DNA of 64,000 bases from an uncultured Chloroflexia bacterium (GCA_964592645.1 CAZQFV010000017.1:306-64305); one strand, 5' to 3'; positions 1-33,648 are shown, counted from the stretch's first letter. Notes: generated by a model from the letters alone, not told the origin. A program made the numbers and translations.

Positions 1-192
1 GGAAGCAGCGCGCACTGGGTGAACCATGCGGCGGGCTATCCGGGACGATTCGGATGGCAAGAGGGCTACGGGGCATTCTCGTTCAGCAAACGCTCGTTGG
101 CTGCGGTTGTGCGCTATGCCGTGGAACAGCGGCAGCGCCATGAAAGAGGCAAGTTGCTGCCGGAGATGGAGCGGATCGAGGCCGCGGAATGA
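1..192 (+). mobile_element. IS200/IS605-type (Y1, RAYT-like) transposase, C-terminal end only; the gene runs off the left edge
   Basis: Frame 1 is open from nt 1 to TGA 190-192 and reads ...GRFGWQEGYGAFSFSKRSLAAVVRYAVEQRQRHERGK... This resembles the conserved C-terminal 'WQ.GY.AFSVS...V..YI.NQ..HH' block of Y1 transposases. Only 63 codons are visible. Confidence 0.55.
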
Positions 193-366: not shown

Positions 367-516
367 GCCCGGGTTTTGCGCGGGGGCTCGTGGAACAACA
401 ATCGAGAGAACGGGCGTTCCGCGTACCGCAACAACGACAACCCCGAGAACGACAACGACAACGGGGGTTTTCGTTGTTGTTTAGCGGCCAATCGTTCTGC
501 GCCTGTGCGTGGATAG
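367..516 (+). pseudogene. Orphan 3' fragment of an FGE-sulfatase (SUMF1-like) domain gene
   Basis: The tail of ORF 220..516 reads RVLRGGSWNNNRENGRSAYRNNDNPENDNDNGGFRCCLAA, the canonical end of the FGE-sulfatase fold. Nothing upstream in that frame is FGE-like. The DNA is a close direct repeat of 3376-3500. Confidence 0.6.
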
Positions 517-752: not shown

Positions 753-3518
753 ATGACCGATCCCTATTCCCGCTACGAACAGGGCGTGGAGGAGCTGCTG
801 GCGCGCCTGGGGAAAGACCATCCCCAGTACGCCGCCGCCCTCGTCCAGCAGACCCGCCTCCTGGAGAACATCGCCTCTACCCGGCGCTACGGCCCGACCG
901 AGGAGCTGCGCCACGAGCGCGCCGAGGTCCTGGATCGCCTGCATGAGCTGGCGCTGGCGGCCGGCGCGCGGTCCTTCCTCGACCTGTGCCCGCCCGGCCC
1001 GCCGGAGGAGATCTCTCCCGCCGCCCTGCTCCCGGCCTACTACCGCGCCCTGGCCGCCGACTGCCGCCGGCTGCCCCTGGGCGTGGTGGCCCCCCGCTTT
1101 GTGGAGGCCGGCCCGGCGGACCGCGTGCCCCTGCCCGACGTCTACGTGGACCTGGACGTCCTGGCCCCGGCGCGCGAGGAGCAAGAGCGGGCCGGCAAAG
1201 CCTTCCTGGAACGGATGGCCCGCGGCGAGGGCCGCGAGCGCACCCCCCTCCTGGAGGCCATCGCCCACCCCCAGGTCACCCGCTTTGTGCTGTTGGGCGA
1301 CCCCGGCTCGGGCAAGACCACCTTTGTCAACTACCTGACCTACCTGCTGGCCGACGCCGCGGGCGCCGGCGGGGCGGCGCCGCTGCCGGCCGGCTCCCCC
1401 CTGGCCGGCCTCCTGCCGTTCCGCCTGGTGCTGCGCGAGGTGGGCGCCCGCTGCATCCCCGCCGCAGCGGCCCGGGGCGAAGCGCAGATGCTCTGGAACG
1501 CCCTCCGCGCCGACATCGCCGCCCGCCTGGGCGAGGAGGCCGCCCAAGCGCTCTTCCCCATGCTGCAGCAGCGCCTGCTGGGCGAGGGCGGCCTGGTGCT
1601 GCTGGACGGGCTGGACGAGGTGCCCGAGGCCGACCGGCGGCGACAGTGCCTACTGGAGGCGGTGGCCGACCTGGCCGGCCTGCTGCCGGCCGGCCGCAGC
1701 CGCGTCCTGGTCACGGCCCGGCCCTACGCCTACGCCGCGCCCCACTGGCGCCTGGCGGAATTCGCGACCCTGCTGCTGGCGCCCCTGGACGGGGCGCAGC
1801 AGGAACGCTTCATCGGGCGCTGGTACCAGGCCGTGCGCCCGGCGATGAAATGGGACGAGGCCACCGCTGCCGGGCGGGCCGGGCGGCTGCGGCAGGCGCT
1901 GGCCGAGCGGCCCTACCTGGCCGACCTGGCCAGCAGGCCGCTCCTCTTGACGCTGATGGCCACGCTGCACACCAGTTGGGGACAGCTCCCGGAGGACCGC
2001 GCCGACCTGTACGAGGAGACGGTCAAGCTGCTCCTCAGCCGCTGGCAGCGCGGCGGGGAAGCGCGTGGACCGGATGGCGAAGCGGTGCTCGATCCGGGCG
2101 TGGCCCGGGTGTTGGCGCTGGAGGAGGGCCGGGTGCGCCCGGCGCTGCACCGGTTGGCCTACACGGTGCACGAGCGCCAGCGGCAGAGCGGGGAGGCGGA
2201 GCGGCCGGCCGACATCGGCGCGGGCGAGGTGCTGGCCGCCTTTGCCCCGCTCCTGCCGGAGGACCTCAACCCGCGGCTGCTGGTGCGCTACCTGGAGACG
2301 CGGGCCGGCCTGCTCCTGGCCCGCGCCCCCGGGGTGTACGCCTTTCCGCACCGCTCCTTCCAGGAGTACCTGGCGGCCTGCTACCTGGCCGAGGAGACGG
2401 ACCTGGCCGCGGCGCTGCAGGAGCGCGTCTGGCAGGACCCGGCCTGGTGGCGGGAGGTCTTTTTGCTCGGCGTGGGCAAGGCCCGCCAGGGCGGACTGAG
2501 CTATGCCGTGCACGTGGTCAACACCCTGCTGCCCGAGGGGCCGGAAGAGGTGGCGGGGAAAAGCGCCACGCACTGGCAGGCGGCGGTGTTGGCCGGGCAG
2601 GCGCTGGCCGACCTGCGCTTTCCCGGCGTAGCCCAGGACAAGCCGCCCCTGCAAGCGGTGTTGAAGCGCGTCCAACGTTGGCTGGTGGCGCTGCTGGAGG
2701 CGCCCGCCGACCTGGCGCCGCGCGAGCGGGCCGCCGCCGGGGACGTGCTGGCCCTCCTGGGCGACCCACGCCCGGGCGTGGGGCTGGACGCGGCCGGCCT
2801 GCCGGACCTGGATTGGGTGGCGGTGCCGGCCGGCCCGTTTCGGATGGGGGATGATAGGAGCGGAGAAAGGGACGAGCGGCCGGCCCACGAGGTACACCTG
2901 CCGACCTTCCGCCTGGCCCGCTACCCGGTGACCAACGTCCAGTACGCCGCCTTTGCGCGGGCCACCGGGCGGATGTGGCGCGGGGCCGACTTTGCGCCGC
3001 GGCAGGCCCACCACCCGGCGGTCTATGTCACCTGGCACGACGCCGTAGCCTTTTGCGAGTGGCTGACGGCGCGCTGGCGCGAGGCCGGCCGGCTCGGGGC
3101 GGACGAGGTGGTGCGGCTGCCCACCGAGGCGGAGTGGGAAAGAGCCGCCCGGGGGACAGACGGGCGGGAATACCCTTGGGGAGAATGGGCCGCCGGCCGG
3201 GCCAACACCTTGGAGAGCGGGATCCACGCGACCAGCGCGGTCGGCTGTTTCGCCGCCTGGAACAGCCCTTGCGGCTGCGCCGACATGACCGGCAACGTCT
3301 GGGAGTGGTGCAGCAGCCTGTACAGGCCCTACCCGTACCGGGCGGACGATGGCCGGGAGAAGGCCGGGGCCGGCGGCAGCCGGGTTTTGCGCGGGGGCTC
3401 GTGGAGCGACACTCGAGAGGACGGGCGTTCCGCGTTCCGCGACAGCGACTTCCCCGGGCTCGACATCGACTTCGGGGGTTTTCGTTGTTGTTTAGCGGCC
3501 CGGCCGTTCTCTCCATAA
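753..3518 (+). CDS. STAND NTPase: N-terminal helical adaptor (EAD-like) + NACHT P-loop NTPase + helical repeats + C-terminal FGE-sulfatase domain
   Basis: 921-aa ORF. Walker A is RFVLLGDPGSGKTTFVNYL and Walker B is GGLVLLDGLDEV. The C-terminus has YPVTNVQYAAFARATG, VTWHDAVAFCEWL, RLPTEAEWERAARG and RVLRGGSW...GGFRCC, which is FGE-sulfatase. GAGGAGG lies 7 nt upstream of the ATG. Confidence 0.9.
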   Translation: MTDPYSRYEQGVEELLARLGKDHPQYAAALVQQTRLLENIASTRRYGPTEELRHERAEVLDRLHELALAAGARSFLDLCPPGPPEEISPAALLPAYYRALAADCRRLPLGVVAPRFVEAGPADRVPLPDVYVDLDVLAPAREEQERAGKAFLERMARGEGRERTPLLEAIAHPQVTRFVLLGDPGSGKTTFVNYLTYLLADAAGAGGAAPLPAGSPLAGLLPFRLVLREVGARCIPAAAARGEAQMLWNALRADIAARLGEEAAQALFPMLQQRLLGEGGLVLLDGLDEVPEADRRRQCLLEAVADLAGLLPAGRSRVLVTARPYAYAAPHWRLAEFATLLLAPLDGAQQERFIGRWYQAVRPAMKWDEATAAGRAGRLRQALAERPYLADLASRPLLLTLMATLHTSWGQLPEDRADLYEETVKLLLSRWQRGGEARGPDGEAVLDPGVARVLALEEGRVRPALHRLAYTVHERQRQSGEAERPADIGAGEVLAAFAPLLPEDLNPRLLVRYLETRAGLLLARAPGVYAFPHRSFQEYLAACYLAEETDLAAALQERVWQDPAWWREVFLLGVGKARQGGLSYAVHVVNTLLPEGPEEVAGKSATHWQAAVLAGQALADLRFPGVAQDKPPLQAVLKRVQRWLVALLEAPADLAPRERAAAGDVLALLGDPRPGVGLDAAGLPDLDWVAVPAGPFRMGDDRSGERDERPAHEVHLPTFRLARYPVTNVQYAAFARATGRMWRGADFAPRQAHHPAVYVTWHDAVAFCEWLTARWREAGRLGADEVVRLPTEAEWERAARGTDGREYPWGEWAAGRANTLESGIHATSAVGCFAAWNSPCGCADMTGNVWEWCSSLYRPYPYRADDGREKAGAGGSRVLRGGSWSDTREDGRSAFRDSDFPGLDIDFGGFRCCLAARPFSP

Positions 3519-3537
3519 TGCTGGTTGCTGGCTGCTG

Positions 3538-3566
3538 GGCCAATTCGGGCAGAGCCCGAATTGGCC
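3538..3566 (+). repeat. Perfect 13-bp-stem hairpin (GGCCAATTCGGGC aga GCCCGAATTGGCC)
   Basis: Read directly from the sequence, 20 nt after the NACHT stop codon. No T-run follows it. Confidence 0.8.
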
Positions 3567-3581
3567 TGCTGCGGGGGGAGT

Positions 3582-3609
3582 CCAGAGGGGGGCGAATGCC
3601 CCCCTCTGG
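3582..3609 (+). repeat. Perfect 12-bp-stem hairpin (CCAGAGGGGGGC gaat GCCCCCCTCTGG)
   Basis: Read directly. It is the second of three consecutive hairpins after the NACHT gene. Confidence 0.8.
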
Positions 3610-3610
3610 T

Positions 3611-3632
3611 GGCCGCGAAGCGGCCGATTTTT
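3611..3632 (+). terminator. Rho-independent terminator candidate
   Basis: GGCCGC-gaa-GCGGCC stem-loop followed immediately by GATTTTT. Confidence 0.6.
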
Positions 3633-3668
3633 GGAGGCTCCGCGGGAGGTAACGTTGCGAGGCGCGCG

Positions 3669-4334
3669 ATGACCGTCCAGATCGACGATGCCGGGTGGGG
3701 CTCCCTGGTCGGCTCCACCGTCATCGGGGCCTACCGCACCGAGACCGGGGAGTTTGCCTGCGTCGAGCTGCCGATGGCCTGTTTTCGCGGCGCGGCCTTT
3801 CGCCGCAAAGCCTATCTCGACGCCGTCGTCGCGGCCGTCCGCGAACTGGTGGAGCGGTTGGGCGTGGCGAAAAAGGAAACGGTGCAGGTCTGCTCCGGGT
3901 ACGTCCTGGAGCGGGCCCGGCAGTGGCTGCGCGGCCAGGGGTATCACGTCGAGGTCGGGCGCATCACCGGCCCGCTGCAGGAGCTGGTGGAGGCGGCCTT
4001 TGCCCAGACGCTGGAGCGCATCGGGTTCCATGGGCCGGCGGACGCCGCCCCCCATCCCGCCCGGGCCTTTTTCGCGGCGCTCACGTGGCTCAAAGGCGGC
4101 GACCCCACCGCCACGCGGGCCCGGCCGGAGCGGGAGCGCTGGGCCAAGACGGGGTGGCCCTCGTACCGCGCCTGGATTGGGCGGCGGGCAGATTCCGACC
4201 GCGCCGCAACCGCCGCGGGGCGCAGACCGAGAAGAGACTCCAAGCACGCGCCGCCGTCCCTGCGACAGGCTAAGGGCGATGCCTCGGCGGCACGGGGCCG
4301 CCCGCGCCGGCCCCGGCGCGGGGCGCAGCGTTAG
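3669..4334 (+). CDS. Hypothetical protein; the N-terminus carries an RNase HII-like 'IDDAGWGSLVG' motif and the tail is basic and Arg/Pro-rich
   Basis: ATG at 3669, 6 nt after GAGG. Reads MTVQIDDAGWGSLVGSTVIGAYRTETGEF... Lies between the NACHT and SIR2-CHAT genes. No confident family assignment by eye. Confidence 0.6.
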   Translation: MTVQIDDAGWGSLVGSTVIGAYRTETGEFACVELPMACFRGAAFRRKAYLDAVVAAVRELVERLGVAKKETVQVCSGYVLERARQWLRGQGYHVEVGRITGPLQELVEAAFAQTLERIGFHGPADAAPHPARAFFAALTWLKGGDPTATRARPERERWAKTGWPSYRAWIGRRADSDRAATAAGRRPRRDSKHAPPSLRQAKGDASAARGRPRRPRRGAQR

Positions 4335-4366
4335 CGGCCCGCGCCGGCCCGCCGGAGTCGGTACGG

Positions 4367-4512
4367 CGGAGGCGCGGAGAAAGGTCGGACGCCTCCGGCT
4401 ACGAGGTGCCAGCCCCGTTGGGGCTAAAACCAAGCCTGACGGTTCGGCTGTAGCCGCCGGCAGCGCCGGCGAAACGCAGGCCCGCAGGGCCTGCCATCTC
4501 GTAGCCGGAGGC
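4367..4512 (+). other. Highly structured GC-rich intergenic element (possible ncRNA, leader or REP-like unit)
   Basis: A 15-bp perfect inverted repeat (GCCTCCGGCTACGAG 4391-4405 / CTCGTAGCCGGAGGC 4498-4512) encloses three hairpins at 4411-4425, 4455-4471 and 4477-4493. An upstream CGGAGGCG (4367-4374) can pair instead with 4390-4397. Confidence 0.4.
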
Positions 4513-4636
4513 TTGCGAAACCCGGTCGGCTAAGATGACAAGCATGCGCCGCGATGCCGGGGGTGGGCGGCGGGGTCGGTTGGCGGCAGCCTCCGGCGGC
4601 GCCGGCCCCCAGCATAGCGCAAAGGAGCAAGACACG

Positions 4637-7132
4637 ATGGCGCAACACGACTACCAGGACTTGTACGACAAGCTCGCCCGCGGCCAACTGGCCCTCTTCC
4701 TCGGCGCCGACCTGCCACGGGCGGTCACCGGGCTGCCCGCGCGGGCCGAGCTGGCCCAGGGGCTGGCCGCGCGCCACGGGCTGGGCGCGGGCCTCTCGTG
4801 GGCCCAGGCCGCCCAGCGCGCCGCCCGCGGCGGGTTCGTCAACGACCTCATCCGCTACCTCGGCGACGAACTGGAGCCGCCGCGCCGCCGGCCGGCCCGC
4901 CTCCACGAGCTCATCGTCCGGCTCGGCGCGCCCGTCGTCCTCACCACCGCCTATGACGACCTGCTCAAGCTGGCCTATGAAAAGGCGGGAGTCGCCTTCA
5001 ACCATGTCGTGGACGATGCCGACGTGCCCTTTATCCAGGCCGGCCGGCCCACCCTGCTGCGCCTCTATGGGGCCCTCTCCCGACGAGGCAGCCTGGTCCT
5101 GACCGAGGACGACCAGTACGGCCTCCTGCGCGACCGGCGCAAGGAAGCGCTGCTTGGCGAGGTGCGCGGCGTGCTGGCCAAGCACACCATCCTCTTTCTC
5201 GGCTACGATCTGGCCGACCCCGACTTTCACTTTCTCTGGCGCGAGGTGCTGGAGCGGGCCGGCAAGTTCGCCCTGGGGGCCTACGCCGTCTGGCCGGGGC
5301 TGCCGGAGGGGGAGCGGCGGGTCTGGGAGGAGCGGCGGGTGCGGGTGATCGATGCAGAGCCGCTGGCCGTACTGGAGGCGTTGGTGGGGACGCGGCCGGC
5401 CCCGTCGCCGCCGGCGGCGACCCCCGCGGCCGCGCCCAAGTACGAGATTCACATCGGGCAAGGCACCGGCGTGGTGATCGGCGATGGCGCCCAGGTGAAC
5501 CAGCAGATCGGCGGCGAGGCCCCGCGAGCGGGACCGGCGGCGGTTCCCGCGGTTGGCGCCGGGCAAACGGGCCGTATGGACTACCCCCGCGGCTTTCAGA
5601 GATTGCAGGAGTATCTCGCTCAGACTGCGCCCGCCCGGATGGCCGAACTGGCGACGCTGGAGGAGCGCTTCCAGAAGAACGAACGCGCCGAACGGCTCTA
5701 TGGCGGCAGCGAGAATACCCGTCACGAGCGTTCGCAGATCATCCATGCCCTCAACGTGTTGGCGCTGGAGACCCTGGGGATCAGCTTCAACGACCTGTGC
5801 ATGGGAGTGCCGTATTCCGGCCGGCCGGCGGCAGCGCCGGGAACAATCGAGCCGTTGCCTACAACGGGGCCGGTACAGCAACCCGTGCCGGAGATCTCGG
5901 CCGCCCCGCGCATCCCCTTCCAACTACAGCTCACCCGGCGGGGCCAGCAGAAAGTGGAGGTCCGCGCCTTGCAGACCCCCCTGGGCGAGCCACACGCCGT
6001 AGTCCAGTTGCCCTACACCGAAGTCGAGTTGAGCGTCGTGCTCAAGGCGCTGCGGCTGCGGCAGTATACTCCGGAGACTTTTCCCGATGAGCAGCGCGAA
6101 ATCCTGGCGCAGTTGGGGTTCTTGCTGGCCGGCGACCAACTCGATCCGGCCATTTTGTGGCGTGTAGGGCAGACCCTGTACGACACCTTGATGGCGGGCG
6201 AGATCAATACGGCCTTTCAAATGGCCTTGAACCAAATCCCCGGCCAGGGGGTAGTTTCCCTGCAACTGCGCTTTGACGAGGACGCCGTCGAGTTGGCCCG
6301 CTACCCCTGGGAACTCCTCTACTGCCGACAGCCGCTGCTTCCCAGCGGGGCCGTCGAATTGACCCGCTATATCAGCTATGCCCAGGCGGCGTCTCCCCTG
6401 GGGGTCACTCCGCCCCTGCGCCTGCTGTACATCCAATCGCGCCCCAGGGGCGTCCCGACGCTCGCCAACACCGAGCAAAAGGTCGCCCGCCAAGCCCTGG
6501 CCCCACTCCAAGAAGAGGGACTGTTGCAGGTCGACACACTTCCCCGCCCCACCTTTGAAGGGCTGCTGGATTACCTGGAGTCCTATCCGGTCCACATCCT
6601 CCACTTTGACGGCCACGGGGTGTTTGCCCGCCGCTGTCCTGTATGCGGTGAGCTGAACGCCCCGACAGCAGAACGGTGCTGGGGGCAGAAGGGAGGCCGG
6701 GCCTGTGGCCGGCCGCTGGCCCAGATCGCTCCCCAGGGCTACCTGGCCTTCGTCGGTCCGGGGAGAAAGGTCGACCCGATCGGCAGCGTGGATCTGGCCA
6801 CGCTCCTGTCGCGCCGCGGGGTGCGCTTGGCCGTGCTCTCGGCCTGTTGGAGTGGGGCGGTGCGGGGCGAGACGCTGTTCGGCGGCGTGGCCCCGGCGCT
6901 GATCCAGGCCGGCCTGCCGGCCGTCGTCGCCACCCAACTGCCAATCGGCGTCGACGCGGCGGCCAGGTTCGCGCAGGGCTTCTACCGGGCCCTGTCGCGT
7001 TTCGAAACGCTTCCTGCTGCCGTCAACGCCGGGCGCATCCGTATTCTGAACACCCAAGAGTGGTTTATCCCCACCTTGTACCTGCGCAGCCAGGACAGCG
7101 AGGGTAGGCTCTTTGTCCGCCAAGGAGGGTAG
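4637..7132 (+). CDS. SIR2-like domain + helical adaptor (EAD-like) + CHAT (caspase-like) protease fusion protein
   Basis: ATG 4637 follows AAAGGAG (4621-4627). The N-terminus matches the SIR2_2 pattern: LALFLGADLP, VVLTTAYDDLL, LLRLYGAL, ILFLGYDLADPDF. The C-terminal CHAT dyad is HILHFDGHG (His) and RLAVLSACWSG (Cys). Confidence 0.9.
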   Translation: MAQHDYQDLYDKLARGQLALFLGADLPRAVTGLPARAELAQGLAARHGLGAGLSWAQAAQRAARGGFVNDLIRYLGDELEPPRRRPARLHELIVRLGAPVVLTTAYDDLLKLAYEKAGVAFNHVVDDADVPFIQAGRPTLLRLYGALSRRGSLVLTEDDQYGLLRDRRKEALLGEVRGVLAKHTILFLGYDLADPDFHFLWREVLERAGKFALGAYAVWPGLPEGERRVWEERRVRVIDAEPLAVLEALVGTRPAPSPPAATPAAAPKYEIHIGQGTGVVIGDGAQVNQQIGGEAPRAGPAAVPAVGAGQTGRMDYPRGFQRLQEYLAQTAPARMAELATLEERFQKNERAERLYGGSENTRHERSQIIHALNVLALETLGISFNDLCMGVPYSGRPAAAPGTIEPLPTTGPVQQPVPEISAAPRIPFQLQLTRRGQQKVEVRALQTPLGEPHAVVQLPYTEVELSVVLKALRLRQYTPETFPDEQREILAQLGFLLAGDQLDPAILWRVGQTLYDTLMAGEINTAFQMALNQIPGQGVVSLQLRFDEDAVELARYPWELLYCRQPLLPSGAVELTRYISYAQAASPLGVTPPLRLLYIQSRPRGVPTLANTEQKVARQALAPLQEEGLLQVDTLPRPTFEGLLDYLESYPVHILHFDGHGVFARRCPVCGELNAPTAERCWGQKGGRACGRPLAQIAPQGYLAFVGPGRKVDPIGSVDLATLLSRRGVRLAVLSACWSGAVRGETLFGGVAPALIQAGLPAVVATQLPIGVDAAARFAQGFYRALSRFETLPAAVNAGRIRILNTQEWFIPTLYLRSQDSEGRLFVRQGG

Positions 7133-7136
7133 AACG

Positions 7137-7496
7137 ATGGCGATTACGCTGCGGAAACTGATCGACCAGGTCCGGGATGAGCTCTTGTCCGCTCCCCAGG
7201 AACCCACGCCGGAGGCGCTGTACCCCTTTCTGTTTGTCGAGGAAGTCGAGTTGGAACTCAACGTGGCCATTACGGCGGGAGGCAAGGGCGGCGGCAAGGT
7301 CAGCATCCAGATTGTGGAGCTGGGTGGGGAGACCGCCTACTCCCGCGAGCAGACCCACCGGATCAAGGTCAAGATGACCCCGCTGCTGACCAAGGACGAG
7401 GTGCGCGCGCAGCTGCAGCAGGACAAAGGGGTGTGGGACCGTATCCAACACCTGGCCCTGGTCGCCGCGACGAAAGAGATTCCGCTCGCCGGATAG
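7137..7496 (+). CDS. trypco2 (trypsin-co-occurring domain 2) family protein
   Basis: ATG 7137 lies 7 nt after AAGGAGGG and 4 nt after the upstream stop. LYPFLFVEEVELELNVAITAGGKGGGKVSIQIVELGGETAYSREQTHRIKVKMTP fits the trypco2 signature (F.V.EVELEL.V....G..G......G......TH.IK..L.P). Confidence 0.8.
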   Translation: MAITLRKLIDQVRDELLSAPQEPTPEALYPFLFVEEVELELNVAITAGGKGGGKVSIQIVELGGETAYSREQTHRIKVKMTPLLTKDEVRAQLQQDKGVWDRIQHLALVAATKEIPLAG

Positions 7497-7533
7497 GGCG
7501 ACGCAGCGCTGGCGGCCCTATTCCCTCCCCGGT

Positions 7534-8052
7534 GTGGCCTACTGTGCCCGCTGCGGGGCTCCTCTTTACGGGCAGACGACCCGCGGGCGACGCTGCCTGT
7601 ACTGTTCACGCCGCCGCGACCACGGGAGGGGCCCGGCGCGGGGTGGTTGCGACCTGCCGGGGCTCCATGCTGACAAATGTGAGGCCGCAGGGGCCCGCCT
7701 GTTACAGTTGATCGAGATCCCCGCCGGGGACAAGGAGCAGATCCTGTCCGGGATCGACACCGCACCCCGTCGCAACGGTCCGACGCTGGCTTCGCTAAAG
7801 ATGCAGCGCATCAAGTTGCTCTTCAAGGAGGGAGACATAAGCCGTGAGGAATACCTGGCGGACAAGGCGCAGATTCAGGCCGAGATGGCCCGTGTATCTC
7901 CACCGACGAGTCCGGACCTGACCCGGGCGGCGGACATCCTCACCGACCTGGGCCGGGTGTGGTCCGAGGCTACCAGTGAGCGCACGCAGAAGGTTCTGCT
8001 CCGAGGGGTTTTTGAGGCCATCTTTTTCGATGGTGCAATGATCCCCGATTGA
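7534..8052 (+). pseudogene. Large serine recombinase, C-terminal fragment only (zinc-ribbon + coiled-coil part)
   Basis: YCARCGAPLYGQTTRGRRCLYCSRRRDHG...C then ...KLLFKEGDISREEYLADKAQIQAEMARV... matches the recombinase zinc-beta-ribbon and coiled-coil tail. The catalytic resolvase and recombinase domains are absent upstream. Adjacent to the 3' end of tRNA-Asp. Confidence 0.6.
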
Positions 8053-8113
8053 ACGCAGTGAGGCCCCAGGCGGCGATGCTGCCGTTCTGGGACCTCATCA
8101 AAAATCGCAGGTG

Positions 8114-8187
8114 CGGGGCCGAGGGGATTCGAACCCCCGATCTCAGCCTTGACAGGGCTGCATGTTAGGCCTCTACACCACGGCCCC
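8114..8187 (-). tRNA. tRNA-Asp (GTC)
   Basis: Hand-folded 74-nt cloverleaf. Acceptor GGGGCCG/CGGCCCC, anticodon stem CAGCC/GGCTG, loop CTGTCAA, T-arm GGGGG-TTCGAAT-CCCCT, discriminator G. CCA is not encoded. Confidence 0.9.
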
Positions 8188-8198
8188 ACGCGCCCACA

Positions 8199-8227
8199 AT
8201 GATACCACAGGTGCTGGGAGGTGTCAA
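8199..8227 (-). promoter_or_regulatory. Sigma-70-type promoter of tRNA-Asp
   Basis: On the minus strand: TTGACA, 17 nt, TATCAT. The -10 element ends 11 nt before the mature tRNA 5' end. Confidence 0.6.
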
Positions 8228-8476
8228 ATAGCCGGTAGCCCGCGCAGGGCGCCATCGCGCTCGAAACGGCACCGCCCCCGCAGCGATGTGACCTGTCCCC
8301 AGCCTCCCTCCCCCCTCTCGCGCCACGCGGCCAAAGCGGCCGGAGAATTGCGGGTCGTCGAGATGGCGACGCGGCGCGGTACCGAAGGCCGTCTTGCCGC
8401 CGGCGGCAGGAGCGATATAGAGGTGGACAGCCATCCCGCTTTCTCCTGGAATGTCCCGGCCGGCGCTGGGCGCGGT

Positions 8477-9688
8477 TCAGGGCCCGCCGACGACCTGCAG
8501 CGGGACCGGGGCAAAGGTCAGCAAAAAGATCACGAGCATGGCCACGGCCACGGCCACCTGCCAGGGCTTGAGGGCGGTCAGGTCGTCCAGGGGCACGGCC
8601 GGCCGGCGGCCGACGAGCAGGATCAGCGCCACCCAGAGGAGCCAGCCGATCCACAGGAGGCTCAGCAGGGCCAGGGCCAGGACGACGGCCCCGGTGATGT
8701 AGCGGGCGCTCCGCCCGAAGAGGGCGTAGGCGATGTGCCCGCCGTCCAGCGTGCCGGCGGGGACCAGGTTCAGGCCGGTGACCATCAGGCCGGCCCAGCC
8801 GGCGTAGGCGATCTGGTGGATGAAGACGTCGACGCCGGTGCCGGGCGGGCAGCCGCGCAGGGCGGCGTGCAGCAGCTCCCAGAAGGTTGCCGGGCCGGCC
8901 CCGCAGCGCGGCAGGAAGTAGCCGAAGTAGGCCGTCTTGATCAGGGCGTAGAGGAGCGAGTTGCCTTCCAGGATAAACATCTCGCCGGACGGCGAGGGCT
9001 GGACGGTGGAGAGCGACAGGCCCAGGATCAACGCCGGGATGGCCACGACCAGGCCGGCGACGGGGCCGGCCAGCCCCAGGGCCAGCAGGTGCCGGCGGTT
9101 CTGCGGCGGGGCCTTCATCTGGATAAAGGCCCCCATGGTGCCCAGCGGGGTGAACGGCAAGGGGATGAAGTAGGGCAGGGTGGCGGGGATGCCCAGCCGG
9201 CGGGAGACAATGTAGTGTCCCAGCTCGTGGGCCAGCAGGATGAGCATCAGCGTGACGGCAAAAGGCCAGCCCGACAGCACGTTCTGCAGGATGGGGCGCT
9301 CTGGAAGCCATTCCATCCCGGCGGTCATGGTGGAGACGACGGTGAGGGCGATCAGGACCAGCGCCAGGGCCACGCGCGGCTGCTGCATGGTCGGCAGCTC
9401 GCCGGGGACGGCCCGGATCACGGTGCGCCCTTCCTCCTCCCGGAAGAGGGGCGTGTAGCCGATGGTCTGGAAGCGCCCCCGCAGGATGGGGTAGGCCGCG
9501 GCGGTGTCCATGAGAAAGTGGCCGTAGAGGTGGACGACGCCGGGGTGATCGCGGTCGAGCAGGGCCTGGCCGATGGTAAAGACGCCGGCCACGGCCTCGT
9601 ACAGGGCGGAAGTGAGATCAGGCGTGGGCGCATTGGACTCGGACAAACGGGCCTCCTGGGTCGAAACGGCTCCTCTTGGTTGGGCCAA
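8477..9688 (-). CDS. Site-2 protease family (peptidase M50) membrane metalloprotease
   Basis: HELGHYIVSRRLG zinc motif within multiple hydrophobic helices. 403-aa ORF. Confidence 0.85.
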   Translation of the reverse strand: MAQPRGAVSTQEARLSESNAPTPDLTSALYEAVAGVFTIGQALLDRDHPGVVHLYGHFLMDTAAAYPILRGRFQTIGYTPLFREEEGRTVIRAVPGELPTMQQPRVALALVLIALTVVSTMTAGMEWLPERPILQNVLSGWPFAVTLMLILLAHELGHYIVSRRLGIPATLPYFIPLPFTPLGTMGAFIQMKAPPQNRRHLLALGLAGPVAGLVVAIPALILGLSLSTVQPSPSGEMFILEGNSLLYALIKTAYFGYFLPRCGAGPATFWELLHAALRGCPPGTGVDVFIHQIAYAGWAGLMVTGLNLVPAGTLDGGHIAYALFGRSARYITGAVVLALALLSLLWIGWLLWVALILLVGRRPAVPLDDLTALKPWQVAVAVAMLVIFLLTFAPVPLQVVGGP

Positions 9689-9753
9689 ACAAGTTTTCTT
9701 TGTGCCGTTGTGGTCGGCAAACAGCAGTTCTTTGCGCCTTCGTGGTTGGGTTC

Positions 9754-12288
9754 CTACTGCGGCGCGCCCACCCGGTAGATCTGCACCCCGGGCGCTTCAA
9801 AGACCAGCGTGCCCAGTTGGGCGAACTTGGCCAGGGACTCGGGCGGGTAGGCGGACAGCTCCTGGGAACCGATAAAGACATAAGAGACTTCATACTGCGC
9901 CAATAGCTGGCGGGCCTCGGCCGGGTTGTCGGTCTTGTAGATGCGCCTGGCGGCCTCGGCGCGGGGCGTGATCTCTGCCAGAGCCGCGGGCTGGCCGCCG
10001 CGCCACTGCAGTTCGTGGCCGTCCCAGCCGAGCAGGGTCGGCCGGCCGGTGGCGGCGGAGACCCGGCCGGCGTAGCCCCAGTCCGAGCCCACCGTTTCCA
10101 GGACGACGGCGTCGGGCGCGGCGTTGTCCTGCAGCCAGCGCACCCCGGCATAGTCGCCCGGGTAGCTCTGCTGCATGTAGGCCAGGCCGTCCAGGTTCCA
10201 GGGGCGCGCCTCGCGCAGCGCCATCTGCAGGGCGGCGCTGGGATAGACCAGCCCGCCGGCCAGGAGCAGAGCCAACGGCAGCGCCCAGGCCAGGCGCGGG
10301 AGGGAGCGCCGCAGGTGGGTGCGCAGCACCTCGCCCACGCTCCAGGCGCCGGCGATGGCCAGCATCATCCAGACCTGGTAGTAGAACTTGAAGACGGTGT
10401 TCATACGGCTCTCGAAGATGTCGCGCAGGTAGACCACCTCGCAGCCCCAGGCCAGGAGCAGGGCCAGCATGAGCAGGAGCAGGGCGAACGCTTCGGCCGG
10501 CCGGCTTTTGCCCAGCAGCCCCCAGCCCAGCACCAGCAGCGGCACGATCATCAGCAGCGGAAAGCCCAGCGCGATGGACAGGACGGCAAAGAGGCCGACG
10601 GCGACCCATTCCCAGGGGCGCACGCGGAGGCGCTTGGCGAAGGCGTGGCCGATGAACCAGGTGAGCGCCGGGTAGAGCGGCAGCCCTACGATCACCAGGA
10701 AGGTGTAGAGCGAGGTCTTGTCCCACAGCACCGGGCCGAGCGTCTGCAGCAGCTTGGAGAAGCCCGGCACTTTGGCCAGCGCGCCCAGGAGGGGCGTGGC
10801 CAATACTTCCGCCGGGACCTCCCGGCTGCCGACGAGCGAGCGAAAGGTGAGGTAAAAGGGCAGGTACAGGGCGATCGCCAGCCCGACGACGATGCCCAGG
10901 TCGCGCAGCAGCGCCAGGGTGTCCCGCCGGCTCCGGGGCTCCTGTGTGTCCTTGCGCCAGCGCCAGACCCAGGCGGCGATGTAGAGCAGCAGGTAGGTCG
11001 GAAAGTCCCAGGAGTTGGCCACGTAGAGGCTGCCCAGCACCATGGCGTTGAGCGCCAGGAAGAGCCACGACCAGCGGTCCGGGCGGTCGCCGGGCGCGCC
11101 CAGCCGGAACGCCGCCCGGCCGCGCTCCGGCGAGAGGACCAGGTTCAGGGCCATGGCCATGGCCAGCAGCGTCAGCGGCAGGCTCATCACATGGGGGTGC
11201 ATGTCGCCCAGGTAGAAGGAGAAAAAGGGGAACTCGGTGATGGCGTACGAACGTTGGACCTGCTCGGGGGTGACCAAGCGTCGCCAGCCCCATAGGGCCG
11301 CCCCGACCTGGCCGCGGGCCTGGATCTGCTGCACCGCTTCCCAGGTGGGCCGCTCGTCCCACAGCACCCGCGAGGGCCACCACCAATAGTCCTGCGATTG
11401 CCATGGCGGGCCGCCGACCTGGATGGTGTCCCAGACGCCGCCGAAATCGCCCCCGGTGTTGACGGCGTGGCCCAGGGAGACCGGCCCCGTGGCTCCCGCC
11501 AGGCGGGCCCGCAGGACGGTAGCCATCTCCCCGGCGTCCAGGGCCACGACCTGGGGGTTGCCGGCGATCGTCTCCAGGGCCCCGGCCTGGTTGCCCACGA
11601 ACATGGCCAGGACCAGGGCCAGCGCGCCGACAAACGCGGCGCGGCGGCGCGCGGCCGCCTCCATGGCCAACGTCAGGTTGTAGCCCAGGCTGAAGCAGCC
11701 GGTGGCGGCCAGGGCCAGGAGGGTGGCCAGGTTGAGGTTAAAGGCCAGGGAAGCGGGCAGCCCCGCAAGCAGGGCCAGCGAGGCGGCCGTAAAGTAGCCA
11801 AAGTAGTAGTAGTTGATGCTGTAGCCCGAGAGCCAGGGGTCCTGCGGGGGGAGCGCCTTGCTCTGCATGATGCCGTTGAGGAAGGCCAGGTCCATGGGCT
11901 GCTCGGTGTGCGAGAGGGCCGGCCCGCCCCAGGGGCCGTAGATGCGCAGCACGGCCCCGGCGAAGAGGAGAAGGGCAAAGAGCAGCTCGTAGAGCAGCAC
12001 CAGCCGCCAGCGCTCGCGCAGAAAGGCGCGGATCGAACGGTCTTTCCAGAAGACGATCCCCGAGAGGACGGCCACCGCGGCCAGGCACAGCACGAGCAGA
12101 CCGCGCCCATAGGAGGCCAGTTGCCACATGCCCAGGAACCAGGCCAGGAAGGCCGGCAGGAGGATGCCCAGCGCCCGGGCCAAGGGGTAGCCCCGGTCCG
12201 GCAGGTGCCGCAACAGCGCCAGCGTCAGCGGCAGGGCGATCAGGGTCAGGATCTCCAGGATGAACCACCATACGACCAGGGACAGCAT
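9754..12288 (-). CDS. DUF2298 / Chlor_Arch_YYY-domain polytopic membrane protein (GT-C-like)
   Basis: Many TM helices and the SGYSINYYYFGYF motif. The start was chosen at MLSLVVWW (12288), which has GAGGA upstream. The ORF extends to 12327. Confidence 0.85.
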   Translation of the reverse strand: MLSLVVWWFILEILTLIALPLTLALLRHLPDRGYPLARALGILLPAFLAWFLGMWQLASYGRGLLVLCLAAVAVLSGIVFWKDRSIRAFLRERWRLVLLYELLFALLLFAGAVLRIYGPWGGPALSHTEQPMDLAFLNGIMQSKALPPQDPWLSGYSINYYYFGYFTAASLALLAGLPASLAFNLNLATLLALAATGCFSLGYNLTLAMEAAARRRAAFVGALALVLAMFVGNQAGALETIAGNPQVVALDAGEMATVLRARLAGATGPVSLGHAVNTGGDFGGVWDTIQVGGPPWQSQDYWWWPSRVLWDERPTWEAVQQIQARGQVGAALWGWRRLVTPEQVQRSYAITEFPFFSFYLGDMHPHVMSLPLTLLAMAMALNLVLSPERGRAAFRLGAPGDRPDRWSWLFLALNAMVLGSLYVANSWDFPTYLLLYIAAWVWRWRKDTQEPRSRRDTLALLRDLGIVVGLAIALYLPFYLTFRSLVGSREVPAEVLATPLLGALAKVPGFSKLLQTLGPVLWDKTSLYTFLVIVGLPLYPALTWFIGHAFAKRLRVRPWEWVAVGLFAVLSIALGFPLLMIVPLLVLGWGLLGKSRPAEAFALLLLMLALLLAWGCEVVYLRDIFESRMNTVFKFYYQVWMMLAIAGAWSVGEVLRTHLRRSLPRLAWALPLALLLAGGLVYPSAALQMALREARPWNLDGLAYMQQSYPGDYAGVRWLQDNAAPDAVVLETVGSDWGYAGRVSAATGRPTLLGWDGHELQWRGGQPAALAEITPRAEAARRIYKTDNPAEARQLLAQYEVSYVFIGSQELSAYPPESLAKFAQLGTLVFEAPGVQIYRVGAPQ

Positions 12289-15360: not shown

Positions 15361-15387
15361 AGGACTAAGCGGAGCGGAGGTGCGGCC

Positions 15388-16140
15388 ATGTGCCAGCGGT
15401 TTCGAGGCCGGGTAGCTATCGTGACGGGCTCCTCGCGGGGGATCGGCCGGGTGACGGCGTTGGCCCTGGGGCGCGAGGGAGCCGATGTGGTGGTCAATTA
15501 TAACCGCCAGGCGGAGGCGGCGCAGGAGGTCGTGCGGGAGATCGAGGCGGCCGGCGGCCGGGCCCGGGCGGTGCAGGCGGACGTGACGGACGCCGCGGCG
15601 GTGTCCCGCCTGGTCCAGGAGACGCTCGACAGCTTCGGACGGGTGGACATCCTGATCAACAACGCCGGCATCTCGCGCGACATGCTGATGATGCAGATGC
15701 AGGAGGCCGACTGGCGGGCGGTGATCGAGACGAACCTGAACTCGGCGTACCTCTGTTGCCAGGCGGTGCTGCGGCCGATGTTGAAGCAGCGCTACGGGCG
15801 CATTGTCAACGTGGCCTCCCTGGCCGGGATCTCGGGGAACGTGGGGCAGGCCAACTACGTGGCGGCCAAGGCCGGCCTGATCGGCTTCACCAAGGGCATG
15901 GCCCGGGAGGTGGCCACGCGCAACATCACCGTCAACGCCGTGGCCCCGGCCTTCTGCGAGACGGACCTGATCGAGCACATGCCGGCCCGCTATCGGCAGT
16001 GGGCCCTGGCCATCATCCCCATGAAGCGCTTCGCCCGCCCCGAAGAGGTCGCCGCCCCTATCCTCTTCCTGGCCTCGGAGGAGGCTTCCTATGTCAACGG
16101 CCATACCCTGGTGGTGGACGGCGGGATGGTCTGTCCTTAG
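15388..16140 (+). CDS. fabG: 3-oxoacyl-ACP reductase (SDR)
   Basis: [15 protein letters not shown], and YVAAKAG in the Y-x3-K position. Lies directly downstream of fabD. Confidence 0.88.
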
Positions 16141-16628: not shown

Positions 16629-16694
16629 CTTCAGGGTCCGCCGCGCTGGAGCAAGTGGTTTATGAGATGACTTTAGTTGGCAGAGGAGGTCCCC

Positions 16695-17447
16695 ATGTGC
16701 GGAAGTCTCGAAGGCAGGGTAGCGCTGGTCACCGGGGCGGCGCGCGGCATCGGCCGGGCCATTGCCCAGCGGCTGGCGGCGATGGGTGCGGCGGTGGCGA
16801 TCAACGACCTGGCCCCCCAGGAGGCCATCGACGCCGTCGTCGCCGAGATCGTGGCGGCCGGCGGGAAGGCCGTCGGCGTCCGGGCCAATGTCACGGTCGC
16901 GGCAGAGGTGGCGGCAATGGTCGACCGGGTGGTGCAGGAGCTGGGCGATCTGCACATCCTGGTGAACAACGCCGGCATCACCCGCGATATGCTCCTGATG
17001 CGCCTGAGCGAGGAGGATTGGGACGCCGTCCTGACGACCAACCTCAAGGGCGCTTTCCTCTGCACCAAGGCGGCGGTGCGGCCGATGATGAAGGCCCGCT
17101 GGGGCCGCATCGTCAACCTCTCCTCGGTGGTCGGTCTGGCGGGGAACGCCGGCCAGGCCAACTACGCGGCGGCCAAGGCCGGCCTGATCGGTCTGACCCG
17201 CAGCGCCGCCCGGGAGCTCGGTTCGCGCGGCATCACGGCCAATGCCGTCGCCCCCGGCTTTATCCTCACCGACATGACGGCCCGGCTGCCGGACAAGATC
17301 AAGGAGGAGGCCCAGGCCCAGACGCCGGCCGGCCGTCTGGGGACGCCCGAAGACGTCGCCGCGGCGGTGGCCTTTCTCTGCTCGCCGGAGGCCGAGTTCA
17401 TCACCGGGCAGGTGTTGAGCGTGGATGGGGGGATGGTGATGCGGTAA
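16695..17447 (+). CDS. SDR-family oxidoreductase, FabG-like paralog
   Basis: VTGAARGIGRA, NNAGI, YAAAKAG. GAGGAGG lies 5 nt upstream of ATG 16695. Confidence 0.85.
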   Translation: MCGSLEGRVALVTGAARGIGRAIAQRLAAMGAAVAINDLAPQEAIDAVVAEIVAAGGKAVGVRANVTVAAEVAAMVDRVVQELGDLHILVNNAGITRDMLLMRLSEEDWDAVLTTNLKGAFLCTKAAVRPMMKARWGRIVNLSSVVGLAGNAGQANYAAAKAGLIGLTRSAARELGSRGITANAVAPGFILTDMTARLPDKIKEEAQAQTPAGRLGTPEDVAAAVAFLCSPEAEFITGQVLSVDGGMVMR

Positions 17448-28914: not shown

Positions 28915-28987
28915 TTCCCGGTAGCTCAATCGGCAGAGCGGCTGACTGTTAATCAGTAGGTTGGTGGTTCGAGTCCACCCCGGGAAG
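28915..28987 (+). tRNA. tRNA-Asn (GTT)
   Basis: Hand-folded 73-nt cloverleaf. Acceptor TTCCCGG/CCGGGAA, D-arm GCTC/GAGC, anticodon loop CTGTTAA, T-arm GGTGG-TTCGAGT-CCACC, discriminator G. No encoded CCA. Confidence 0.9.
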
Positions 28988-29117
28988 CTCAAGCCAGTTC
29001 GTTGCTGGCCGTATTTCGGTTTTCCGGGGTAGATGTCGCCGACAGCATCGCCGCCGGTCCCGGTTCGTTCGGGCCGGCGGTTGCGTTTTGTCCGCGAGCT
29101 TTGCGGGGCGAGGCAGC

Positions 29118-30025: not shown

Positions 30026-31423
30026 TTATTTCCCTATCCAGATCACCCGTTCGTAGCGGTCTACATAGCCCGGCTTCAGGCTTTCATCGTTGACCAGGAT
30101 GTCGAATTCCTCTTCACCGGCAAGCGCCTCCTTGAGCGCCTTCCCCAGGGCGCGCAGGATCTCGACATCCTGCGGGTTTACCCTTCCCTGTGTCTTCTCA
30201 GTGATGACGGCCGGGAGCACGTTCCACAAATCCCCGCCGCTGTACTCCGCCCCCTTGCCGGCGATACATCCCTCTCGATCGGGCAATTCCGCGCTGCAGT
30301 AAATGCCTCCTGGAATGTGGTAGCCGGCGGGGATGACGATCGCCAAGGCAGCCCTGGTTTTCGAGGGCGTGTGGGTGCGGGCGTAGTGGTTGAGATGTTT
30401 GGCAAGCGCGATGACCTCTTCTGTGGTCAGTGTACCATCGGCATGATTGGCCCAGAAGAAAAAGTAGGTGGCTCCTCTCTCGTACAGTTCTTCCAGAATC
30501 ATCTCTCGCAAGTGGGGCGGGGTCCCGAGATACACCCCATAACCCCAGGTTTTGCCAAAATGATCAGAAGCGCCCCGCTCGAAGGCGGCAATGAGGCGGA
30601 CATAGTTTTCGGGCGTTTCGGGGATGCCGGTGTCGAACGACGCATTGAAGAAATGAATCTGTTGCAGGAAAAAGCCGCCGAGACCTTCTACCCAAAAGCC
30701 ATCTGAACCGGCCTCCAAATCGTACCAGGCGAGGGACTCGAAGGTGTTGGCAGTGGGGAGAGGGGTGTTTCGCTCCTGCCCGCCACTCATTGGGCTGCGC
30801 CTTTCTTCTGTCAGCAATCTTGCCACGTACCGCACGTAGAACTCGGAGGCGGTGCGAACATCAGAAGCGCCGGTAAAGGTTTCATCGGGGAAATAGGCGT
30901 AAGGCTCATCCAGCCATATAGCTCCACTGGTAAAATTTTCGTCCTCCGGCGGCTGCGGGCATGCCGTCATCAGTTCGTTGTTCTTGTAGGTGGGAATGCT
31001 GTGATAGTACCTGATGCCATAAGGCTTGACGGCCGTAACGAATGCGCAGCGCAGCTCATACTGCCGTCGCATGTCCTTGGCCATGAACTCGATCGGTGCC
31101 GAGATTTCATTGATCCCTGCCTCAATCAAGGCAGGCAGTTGGCTGAAGTCAAAATCGCCGAATTGTGTCACCCCATCCGCATCTACGCCGAGAACCTGCC
31201 GGGGTGCGAAGGTGGCCAGGATGAGTTGGCGTGAGGTCTTGGTAGGCTGTTGTGGTTGTGGCGGAGAAGGCGCGGTAGTCGGAGAGACACAGCCGCTGAG
31301 CAGCAAAACAATAATCCAAACCAGGGGCAGTGTAAGATTGTATGGTGCCCGGGCACGGTATCGCGCATATTGCTCGCCAAAACTTTGCGCAAATGTTCCT
31401 CTTCTGTCAGCACCCCATTTCAT
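30026..31423 (-). CDS. Hypothetical lipoprotein
   Basis: Lipobox VLLLSGC followed by a Pro/Thr-rich linker. AT-richer codon usage than the flanks. The ORF extends to 31495, so the start is uncertain. No family recognised. Confidence 0.7.
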   Translation of the reverse strand: MKWGADRRGTFAQSFGEQYARYRARAPYNLTLPLVWIIVLLLSGCVSPTTAPSPPQPQQPTKTSRQLILATFAPRQVLGVDADGVTQFGDFDFSQLPALIEAGINEISAPIEFMAKDMRRQYELRCAFVTAVKPYGIRYYHSIPTYKNNELMTACPQPPEDENFTSGAIWLDEPYAYFPDETFTGASDVRTASEFYVRYVARLLTEERRSPMSGGQERNTPLPTANTFESLAWYDLEAGSDGFWVEGLGGFFLQQIHFFNASFDTGIPETPENYVRLIAAFERGASDHFGKTWGYGVYLGTPPHLREMILEELYERGATYFFFWANHADGTLTTEEVIALAKHLNHYARTHTPSKTRAALAIVIPAGYHIPGGIYCSAELPDREGCIAGKGAEYSGGDLWNVLPAVITEKTQGRVNPQDVEILRALGKALKEALAGEEEFDILVNDESLKPGYVDRYERVIWIGK

Positions 31424-31505
31424 CTTCCACCTCTTGCGAAGTAACCATCGAGCCTCGATCCTCGCGACCTTTAGCCGTCCAACGGTCGGGTTCATCGTTT
31501 ATCTC

Positions 31506-32984: not shown

Positions 32985-33461
32985 CCTTCATCTGTTAGAT
33001 CCATTGCTCACCTCGATCATCGTGGTGAGCATAGTATTATACACCATCTTACGGATCTATGAGATGACTTCTAATACAATGCCGTATAGAAGATATTGCG
33101 GGAGCGTGACACCATTATACAAAAAAGGATTGCCCATGTCAATATGGAAGCGGTAGTGACCGGTGGACTTTCGGAAAAAGTCGCAGGGGATTCTCCGTCC
33201 CCTGCCTTCTCCGGTGCTCAGACAGCCGGTGCTCGGATCGGCGCCTGATCGCCCTCCTCTCGCAGGTAGGCGGTCAGCGTCGTGTCCGCGCTTGCCCAAA
33301 ATTGCCCCCGATGGCCGAAACCCTGGCCTGTCCCCTGCCGGTGCCGGCCGATGCAGCCCTGACCCCACGCCCTTCTCGTGGAGGCGCAGCCCGTGTAGCG
33401 CCCCATCTGGGGCGAGATTCCCCTTTGCCTTCCGTTTTGGGCAATCACCGGCGCCGGTGAG

Positions 33462-33491
33462 CTGGCAAGAGGGGCCGCCCTGTGATATAAT
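33462..33491 (+). promoter_or_regulatory. Candidate promoter of the defence operon, with an extended -10
   Basis: CTGGCA, 18 nt, TGaTATAAT (TATAAT at 33486-33491), about 160 nt upstream of the SNF2 start. Confidence 0.35.
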
Positions 33492-33648
33492 GCGCAACAA
33501 GAAACAAAAACCCCGCGGCTTCGACGGAGCCCGGGGCACGGCCAAGGCGGGCGGCGCCCTGACAGATACTCTAACACCTGCCCGCCGACGGCAAGTTGGG
33601 CGGGCCTGCACGTGGGGGCCGTTACTGCACCCGGCGAGGGGATCTACT

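Follow-up and report, generated by a model that had tools for sequence, protein, structure and literature searches.

Does a small helical module that is shared by two neighboring genes couple a sensor to its effector? This question is raised by a 64,000-nucleotide stretch of DNA from an uncultured Chloroflexia bacterium (GCA_964592645.1 CAZQFV010000017.1:306-64305, one strand; the window in what follows, from whose first letter all positions are counted). A sensor gene at 753-3518 (plus strand, 921 amino acids), composed of the module, a NACHT domain and an FGE-sulfatase/C-type-lectin-fold domain, lies upstream of an effector gene at 4637-7132 (plus strand, 831 amino acids; public gene call P0158), in which the module stands between a SIR2_2 domain and a CHAT protease domain. 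A sequence-only reading of the window had proposed that the two modules are the same domain, that such sharing is what homotypic, Death-domain-like recruitment would require, and that the two genes are functionally coupled although a terminator and another gene lie between them. The analysis described here identifies the module as a genuine, widespread and non-catalytic domain, which belongs to an uncatalogued family of the effector-associated domain (EAD) type for which neither Pfam nor NCBIfam holds a model. Its putative role as an adaptor between the two proteins is weighed below.

Copy 1 of the module is found at 774-989 (plus strand; residues 8-79 of the sensor) and copy 2 at 5582-5800 (plus strand; residues 350-422 of an 865-residue reading of the effector). 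The peptides quoted earlier for these two segments match their translations exactly, and both copies are in frame within long ORFs (open reading frames) with a high GC content at third codon positions (GC3), 753-3518 and 4535-7132. When the segments alone were compared by BLASTP with compositional adjustment, 26 of 73 positions were identical (36%) with one gap and an E-value of 2e-11. In the comparison of the full-length proteins the module was the sole significant alignment (E 4e-08). The Smith-Waterman score of the two copies was 101, as compared to 25.3 +/- 5.0 for 5000 shuffled sequences (maximum 55; z = 15), and none of the shuffles attained it. A six-frame scan of the 64 kb with a hidden Markov model (HMM) of the family revealed two copies, on the same strand and in genes 1.1 kb apart, and no third copy in the window.

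The Pfam layout of both proteins bears out the proposed placement of the module. The effector shows SIR2_2 at residues 134-272 (E 2e-20) and CHAT at residues 543-843 (E 8e-28; 865-residue numbering), and copy 2 at residues 350-422 is therefore inter-domain, with Pro/Ala/Gly-rich linkers on both sides. The start at 4535, taken in the sequence-only reading and underlying this numbering, has to be revised: an AAGGAG ribosome-binding site lies just upstream of the ATG at 4637, which is also the start used in public gene calls and is almost certainly the true one. In the sensor (GC3 0.91), NACHT (PF05729; 30.6 bits, cut-off 26.7) was found at residues 178-358, which identifies the protein as a NACHT STAND NTPase, and FGE-sulfatase at residues 687-912 (E 1e-52). 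By Pfam, the sensor carries no effector domain and the effector neither a sensor nor an NTPase domain. An exact-sequence look-up of the sensor protein returned no public record.

The two copies belong to a large family. With a profile of the two window copies, HMMER was run exhaustively over 1.84 billion representative proteins. It recovered 1201 representative clusters at E<=1e-3, and 610 when the limit was set to E<=1e-10; the clusters are defined at 50% identity and 1201 is a lower bound. A word-indexed homology search with the two window copies found nothing, and with a 60-sequence alignment only 12 short proteins. Among the 164 copies in the best 150 proteins, 109 were N-terminal, 26 C-terminal and 29 internal, that is, 135 of 164 were terminal. 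Tandem arrays of two to four copies were present in nine of these 150 proteins. P0001, P0002, P0003, P0005, P0024 and P0032 consist mostly of two to four tandem modules, with TPR repeats followed by four copies in P0001, and such proteins could possibly act as hubs or scaffolds.

The module spans about 75-85 residues. An AlphaFold2 (AF2) model of the domain alone (residues 1-86 of the sensor, computed with the 60-sequence alignment) predicted a compact bundle of three helices at residues 6-19, 26-46 and 50-69, with one short turn in addition, at a pLDDT of 94. Near-invariant positions, in sensor numbering, are G11, L15, R35, N39, G47, R56, L63, N64, S74, F75, L78 and C79, to which the anchor residues picked out in the sequence-only reading correspond. 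R35, N39, G47, R56, N64, S74, F75 and C79 make up the near-invariant polar set that is common to the two subfamilies described below. No catalytic family matched the window segments or 60 module-only sequences.

Searches with the isolated window copies gave no Pfam or NCBIfam match even at E<=10. The identity of the module was also sought among named EAD families and adaptor folds. EAD7 was rejected: it occurs in 10 of 86 member proteins, in regions separate from the module, and comparison of the module family with EAD7 (5 sequences) and EAD8 (2 sequences) by hhalign gave probabilities below 1%. For EAD11 (PF19964), the sequence model that comes nearest, 12 of the 60 module-only sequences gave sub-threshold matches, the best with 23.2 bits (E 7e-5) against a cut-off of 26, all in one register that aligns module positions 3-63 with positions 15-75 of the 80-position profile. 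No other family was seen in more than two of the 60 members. Consensus sequences scored 18-19 bits against EAD11 (18.3 bits for subtype A) or, in the case of subtype B, gave no match, and the conserved C-terminal SFNDLC motif falls outside the aligned part. As a reference we used the C-terminal end of an LRR-GTPase-COR protein from Haliscomenobacter (plasmid NC_015511; 29.1 bits to PF19964), which is listed as EAD11 in the supplement of Kaur et al. 2021 (PMC8195603). By hhalign the module family showed no similarity to this reference, which is a single sequence. Membership in EAD11 is ruled out by the Pfam criterion, nothing having reached 26 bits; a distant relationship may nevertheless be reflected in the sub-threshold matches.

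A Death-like fold (DD, DED, CARD, PYD or bDLD) was also considered and rejected, three helices being predicted and not six, and no structural match being found. Foldseek returned no match at E<=0.001 against the PDB, the best being a de novo designed helical protein (E 0.4), and none of the 50 PDB matches listed has a Death, CARD or PYD fold. Among predicted viral structures there was no significant relative of the module. The description as Death-domain-like thus holds as a functional analogy and fails as a statement on fold.

EADs, as defined by Kaur et al. in 2020 (eLife, PMC7159879) and 2021 (eLife, PMC8195603), are small, non-enzymatic, usually all-alpha and terminally biased, and in the published principle one copy is carried by a STAND NTPase sensor and others by separately encoded effectors. 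The module resembles them in being small, all-alpha (as predicted) and non-enzymatic, in its terminal bias and in combining an NTPase-side copy with diverse effector or signaling copies. On the NTPase or sensor side we found NACHT, NB-ARC, AAA_16 and FGE-sulfatase, and on the effector or signaling side SIR2, CHAT, caspase, TIR, trypsin, PNP and kinase domains. The window sensor carries its copy at the N-terminus; that of the effector is of the internal minority type. The recurrent Pfam partners in the 86 longer members are the STAND NTPase domains AAA_16, NACHT, NB-ARC and nSTAND1, the TPR and HEAT repeats, and further TIR, SIR2_2, Peptidase_C14, FGE-sulfatase, TCAD9 and EAD7. Fusions of the module with EAD7, EAD8 or EAD1 occur in some proteins, each of these EADs in a region of its own, and module-only or EAD-module proteins exist as well (P0007, P0076, L005). 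Among SIR2-x-CHAT, SIR2-x-caspase and SIR2-x-PNP homologs of the window effector, some have the module at x, whereas P0190, P0187, P0162 and P0199 have EAD7 where the window protein has the module; P0162 contains both. As read from these architectures, the substitution at an equivalent position is a natural swap of one putative adaptor for another.

Clustering of 166 copies separated a subtype A (116 copies) from a subtype B (30 copies), with 16 others outside both. The two are homologous (hhalign probability 99.8%, E 1.5e-30) and form two old subfamilies, A of sensors and B of effectors. Copy 1 of the window scored 115 bits with the subtype-A HMM and 55 with that of subtype B, copy 2 scored 129 bits with subtype B and 76 with subtype A, and the two were assigned accordingly. 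Subtype A is found N-terminally on NACHT, NB-ARC and AAA_16 proteins that also bear TPR or HEAT repeats, and a few of its copies are on effectors. B-type architectures comprise SIR2-B-CHAT, SIR2-B-caspase, AAA_35-(SIR2)-B-caspase/CHAT, B-TIR, TIR-SIR2-B, B-CHAT, B-EAD8-trypsin and B-EAD8-PNP.

Loci with a B-type copy were collected from genomes, metagenomes and exact-protein look-ups and searched for module copies in all six frames by means of the family HMM. Seven genome loci, all from Chloroflexota (Anaerolineae, Caldilineaceae), and 12 metagenome loci were obtained; a search of viral contigs with subtype A gave no loci. In four independent loci other than the window, a sensor or signaling protein and a caspase-type effector both carry the module and lie 0-5 kb apart. 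A B-caspase is accompanied by an A-AAA_16 STAND protein in the next gene in L007, by an A-AAA_16 protein in the next gene in L033 and by an A-FGE-sulfatase protein at 5 kb in L004; in L015/L016 a SIR2-B-caspase has a module-Ser/Thr kinase as its neighboring gene. The arrangement with A on the sensor and B on the effector is clean in four cases, the window included. Since subtype A is in the majority, four or five A-type partners are not by themselves statistically notable. L025 contains several copies in a fragmented assembly; L024 and L025 are frameshift-ridden and add little.

The sensor also shows the signature of a diversity-generating retroelement (DGR), which the sequence-only reading had missed. 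A template repeat (TR) at 369-489 (plus strand, 28 A in 121 nt) lies upstream of the sensor gene, and a variable repeat (VR) at 3380-3500 (plus strand) covers the last ~45 codons of the FGE-sulfatase/C-type lectin (CLec) domain. This 121-nt direct repeat is 88% identical, and all 15 of its 15 mismatches fall on TR adenines (A>T 7, A>G 6, A>C 2). An adenine-specific TR/VR pair whose VR lies 3'-terminally in a CLec/FGE fold marks the sensor as a DGR target gene. Judged from these substitutions, the tip of its C-terminal lectin-fold domain is hypermutated by a DGR. A tblastn search with the DGR reverse transcriptase (RT) and Avd of L028 found neither within the window; the TR is only 369 nt from the left edge, and the RT may therefore sit outside. 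In L028 itself (1516-6199), a SIR2-nSTAND1-HEAT-FGE-sulfatase gene is followed by the DGR RT and bAvd and adjoins a second STAND gene and a SIR2-B-CHAT plus Trypco2 pair. At the left edge of the window, the 3' end of an ORF (1-189, plus strand) that contains GYGAFSFSKRSLAAVVRYAVEQRQRHE runs off the sequence. It had no match in a PDB sequence search, and a likeness to IS200/Y1-transposase C-termini is not claimed here.

Between the two genes, three strong hairpins (3530-3635, plus strand; stems of 14, 12 and 6 bp) come directly after the sensor stop codon and the VR. The region folds with a minimum free energy of -90.8 kcal/mol (z = -4.97), and none of 200 shuffled sequences reaches this stability. 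Of the three, the last (3610-3626), which precedes a T-run, is alone in resembling a terminator; the first ones may represent DGR target-site structures. The hairpins are followed by an ORF of 221 amino acids (3669-4334, plus strand, ATG start, GC3 0.84), and both the terminator-like structure and the intervening gene of the sequence-only reading are thus real. The intervening protein has no Pfam match and no PDB sequence match, and its single-sequence AF2 model (pLDDT 45) was unusable; a likeness of its N-terminus to the 'DEAG' motif of RNase HII is not claimed here. The other module loci contain no homolog of it except L030, a contig of a related metagenome-assembled genome. There, at 113-697, a 97% identical protein (98% at the nucleotide level) is encoded upstream of a diverged effector. 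This effector is a mosaic, with 87% identity to that of the window in SIR2, 56% in the module and 64% in CHAT, and the nucleotide similarity between L030 and the window stops at about position 5398 of the window. A mosaic effector beside a near-identical intervening gene suggests that the effector slot recombines and that the locus is a recombination hotspot.

On the other side of the effector, 4 nt past its stop codon, lies a gene of 119 amino acids (7137-7496, plus strand) that the sequence-only reading had missed. It encodes a Trypco2-domain protein, as seen from the match to PF19631 in the identical product of L026, a sequence 100% identical to 4495-11221 of the window. A Trypco2 gene is also found downstream of SIR2-module-CHAT in three other contexts (L028, L029 and L030), as it is in L026/27. 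Neither the intervening protein nor the Trypco2 protein contains the module. A tRNA-Asp gene (8113-8187, minus strand) forms the right edge of the island, and the Peptidase_M50, DUF2298 and YceD genes beyond it are of housekeeping type.

Taken together, we favor, with moderate confidence, the reading that the module is an adaptor of the EAD kind which links a DGR-diversified A-NACHT-lectin sensor to the SIR2-B-CHAT effector by binding of A to B and activation by proximity, with Trypco2 as an accessory. The window would then hold one conflict system directed against invaders, made up of sensor, effector and a small Trypco2 partner gene. In such a system, with the ligand-binding tip of the sensor varied by the DGR, binding of a ligand to the lectin-fold domain would trigger NTP-dependent oligomerization of NACHT, as in STAND/NLR proteins, and thereby cluster the N-terminal A modules. 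The clustered A modules would bind the linker-tethered B module of the effector and concentrate the CHAT protease and/or the SIR2 NADase, whose activation by proximity would lead to cell death or growth stop; the Trypco2 protein would be accessory to these steps. Architectures and gene neighborhoods match what the EAD principle predicts for an adaptor joining a STAND sensor and separate effectors, and this match, along with the complementary parts of the two window proteins, argues for the coupling that the sequence-only reading had proposed. The binding of A to B is putative in the window, and homotypic binding is a prediction for the published EADs as well (PMC7159879, PMC8195603, bioRxiv 10.1101/2023.09.22.558884).

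Several observations weigh against this reading. With copies from other organisms the two window copies share 55-60% identity, with each other only 30-36%, and their mutual similarity ranks 137th and 146th of 163. In the published EADs, the copies carried by neighboring genes resemble one another more than they resemble those of other loci (Kaur et al. 2020/2021). The module family does not follow this pattern: A and B share 38.8% identity within a locus versus 42.1% between loci, which gives no sign of locus-specific co-evolution. The term homotypic, valid at the level of the family, does not hold for two copies from different old subfamilies. As for gene content, a second copy of the module, present in the same locus in roughly half of the informative cases, was absent within ~10 kb at L001, L017/28/29, L031, L032 and L024. 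About half of the B-effector loci with enough flank thus have no second copy nearby. L028 is a fuller version of the window system, but its NTPases carry no module, and its SIR2-B-CHAT and Trypco2 genes come directly after a SIR2-like-nSTAND1-HEAT NTPase without one. In many cases B is part of a single chain in which an AAA_35 NTPase is already present along with caspase or CHAT, and B evidently has a role for which no separately encoded partner is required. Finally, between its sensor and effector genes the window has a terminator-like hairpin and an ORF that looks unrelated.

Some of these observations would be accounted for if the module acted in cis, by self-association or regulation within each protein (homo-oligomerization of the effector, for instance, or gating of the adjoining catalytic domain) and with no bridge between sensor and effector. 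The single-chain AAA_35-(SIR2)-B-caspase/CHAT proteins, the B-effector loci without a second copy, the lack of locus-specific co-variation between A and B and the tandem arrays within one chain are all in line with such a role. We nevertheless consider it unlikely: the module occurs on very varied, unrelated catalytic domains and in module-only or EAD-module proteins, which is hard to square with the gating of one domain, EAD7 substitutes for it at an equivalent position, and pairs of sensor and effector recur in independent loci. A role in cis would moreover leave the window sensor without an output domain. The same lack of co-evolution would fit a docking of both copies to a common third component, be it a hub protein, a factor from the host or a small ligand. 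Polar residues that are near-invariant in both subfamilies are seen at binding sites more typically than on a plain helical packing surface, and proteins with two to four tandem modules (P0001, P0002, P0003, P0005) could serve as hubs. The window, however, contains two copies only and no hub gene, the intervening and Trypco2 proteins being devoid of the module, and the adjacent two-gene pairs in L007, L033 and L015 suggest two partners, which makes a third component quite improbable.

Sensor and effector might also be independent defense genes that share a shuffled mobile domain and are merely co-located in a defense island. The terminator-like structure and the ORF between them, the recombination hotspot marked by the mosaic effector of L030 and the tRNA gene that the island adjoins would fit this explanation. 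We judge it very improbable, for neither protein is a complete system alone, the only two copies in 64 kb lie 1.1 kb apart on one strand, and the pairing of a sensor-side with an effector-side copy recurs in four other loci. That the similarity itself reflects chance or amino-acid composition, both segments being helical and rich in Arg, Glu and Leu, is refuted by the shuffle test (z = 15, 0/5000), by the compositionally adjusted BLASTP E-value of 2e-11 and by the 1201 clusters of the family, and is given virtually no credence.

A wider form of the favored adaptor reading can be put forward tentatively, as a possibility on the doubtful side. In this form, the two subfamilies, anciently diverged and conserved across lineages, would make up a heterotypic, genome-wide adaptor code in which A marks STAND/lectin-fold sensors and B marks SIR2, caspase and CHAT effectors. 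As A and B do not co-evolve within loci, an A-sensor could recruit in trans whichever B-effector its genome encodes, which would explain the loci with a single copy. A DGR-hypermutated receptor repertoire would then feed a shared pool of killer proteins, an arrangement nearer to the receptor/adaptor networks of vertebrates than to EADs that work as one pair in one locus.

Other parts of the window showed features of their own. A tRNA-Asn gene (28915-28988) opens the segment 28915-33000, in which it is followed by a stretch of low GC content (0.56-0.60 versus ~0.70). ORFs in this stretch include an ankyrin-repeat-like one at 31506-32984 and one of 489 amino acids at 30026-31495 (both minus strand), and the stretch looks like a horizontally acquired island. 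Directly past it, an ORF of 1316 amino acids (33163-37113, plus strand) contains helicase-like motifs, for example FDEAHKL, and may be a further gene of defense type. A 300-nt direct repeat of 72% identity (15644-15943 and 16951-17250) lies in two ORFs (15361-16140 and 16677-17447, both plus strand) that are probably paralogous. Toward the right end of the window, at 61600-63650, two families of repeats (68 nt and 90 nt long) are interleaved, mostly at distances of 222 or 444 nt, together with a 201-nt tandem duplication of 92% identity. They fall within a long ORF (61411-63999, minus strand) that reaches the window end, which suggests that it encodes a repetitive, probably coiled-coil protein.

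The type of system to which the window locus belongs, with an EAD-STAND-FGS sensor, a DGR, an EAD-linked protease/NADase effector and Trypco2, is already published, as is the general principle, and the gain is incremental unless the heterotypic code holds. New are the adaptor family without a curated model, its division into one subfamily on the side of the sensors and another on that of the effectors, and locus-mates without locus-specific similarity. A large family that is invisible to Pfam and NCBIfam implies that many sensor-effector links in defense islands of the Chloroflexota type are at present missed by annotation, and the division into A and B allows one to ask whether the adaptor wiring is pairwise within loci or a genome-wide network. 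Should A and B bind, the locus would be a compact bacterial analog of an inflammasome, composed of a hypermutable NLR-like receptor, a 75-residue adaptor pair and an NADase/protease effector.

Among known systems, close counterparts are the EADs of Kaur et al. (PMC8195603), who explicitly described EAD-STAND-FGS proteins with separate EAD-effectors, often linked to DGRs. The window copies likewise sit on a NACHT-FGS STAND protein and on a SIR2/CHAT effector, and their family combines with other EADs. Unlike published EADs, they match no Pfam EAD model, the locus-mates are not closest relatives, and the copy in the effector stands between two catalytic domains and not at a terminus. The DGR-diversified STAND-CLec antigen sensors of Dore et al. 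(bioRxiv 10.1101/2023.09.22.558884), whose hosts include filamentous Chloroflexi, also have a STAND NTPase with a VR in a C-terminal FGE/CLec domain, an adaptor in common with a nearby protease (EAD8 in their DGR6 locus), and Trypco2 and CHAT nearby. In the window, by contrast, the adaptor is of another family, the effector is a double one of SIR2 and CHAT, and RT and Avd are not within the 64 kb. The logic proposed here, of an NLR-type NTPase recruiting a caspase-like protease by way of a small helical domain common to both, is also that of the CARD, PYD and DD adaptors of animal inflammasomes and apoptosomes and of the CARD-like domains of bacteria (PMC10312443), whereas the module of the window is predicted to have three helices and shows no sequence link to them. 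For the activation of effectors through adaptors in bacteria, the CARD-like domains of gasdermin systems provide an experimental precedent (Wein et al., PMC10312443).

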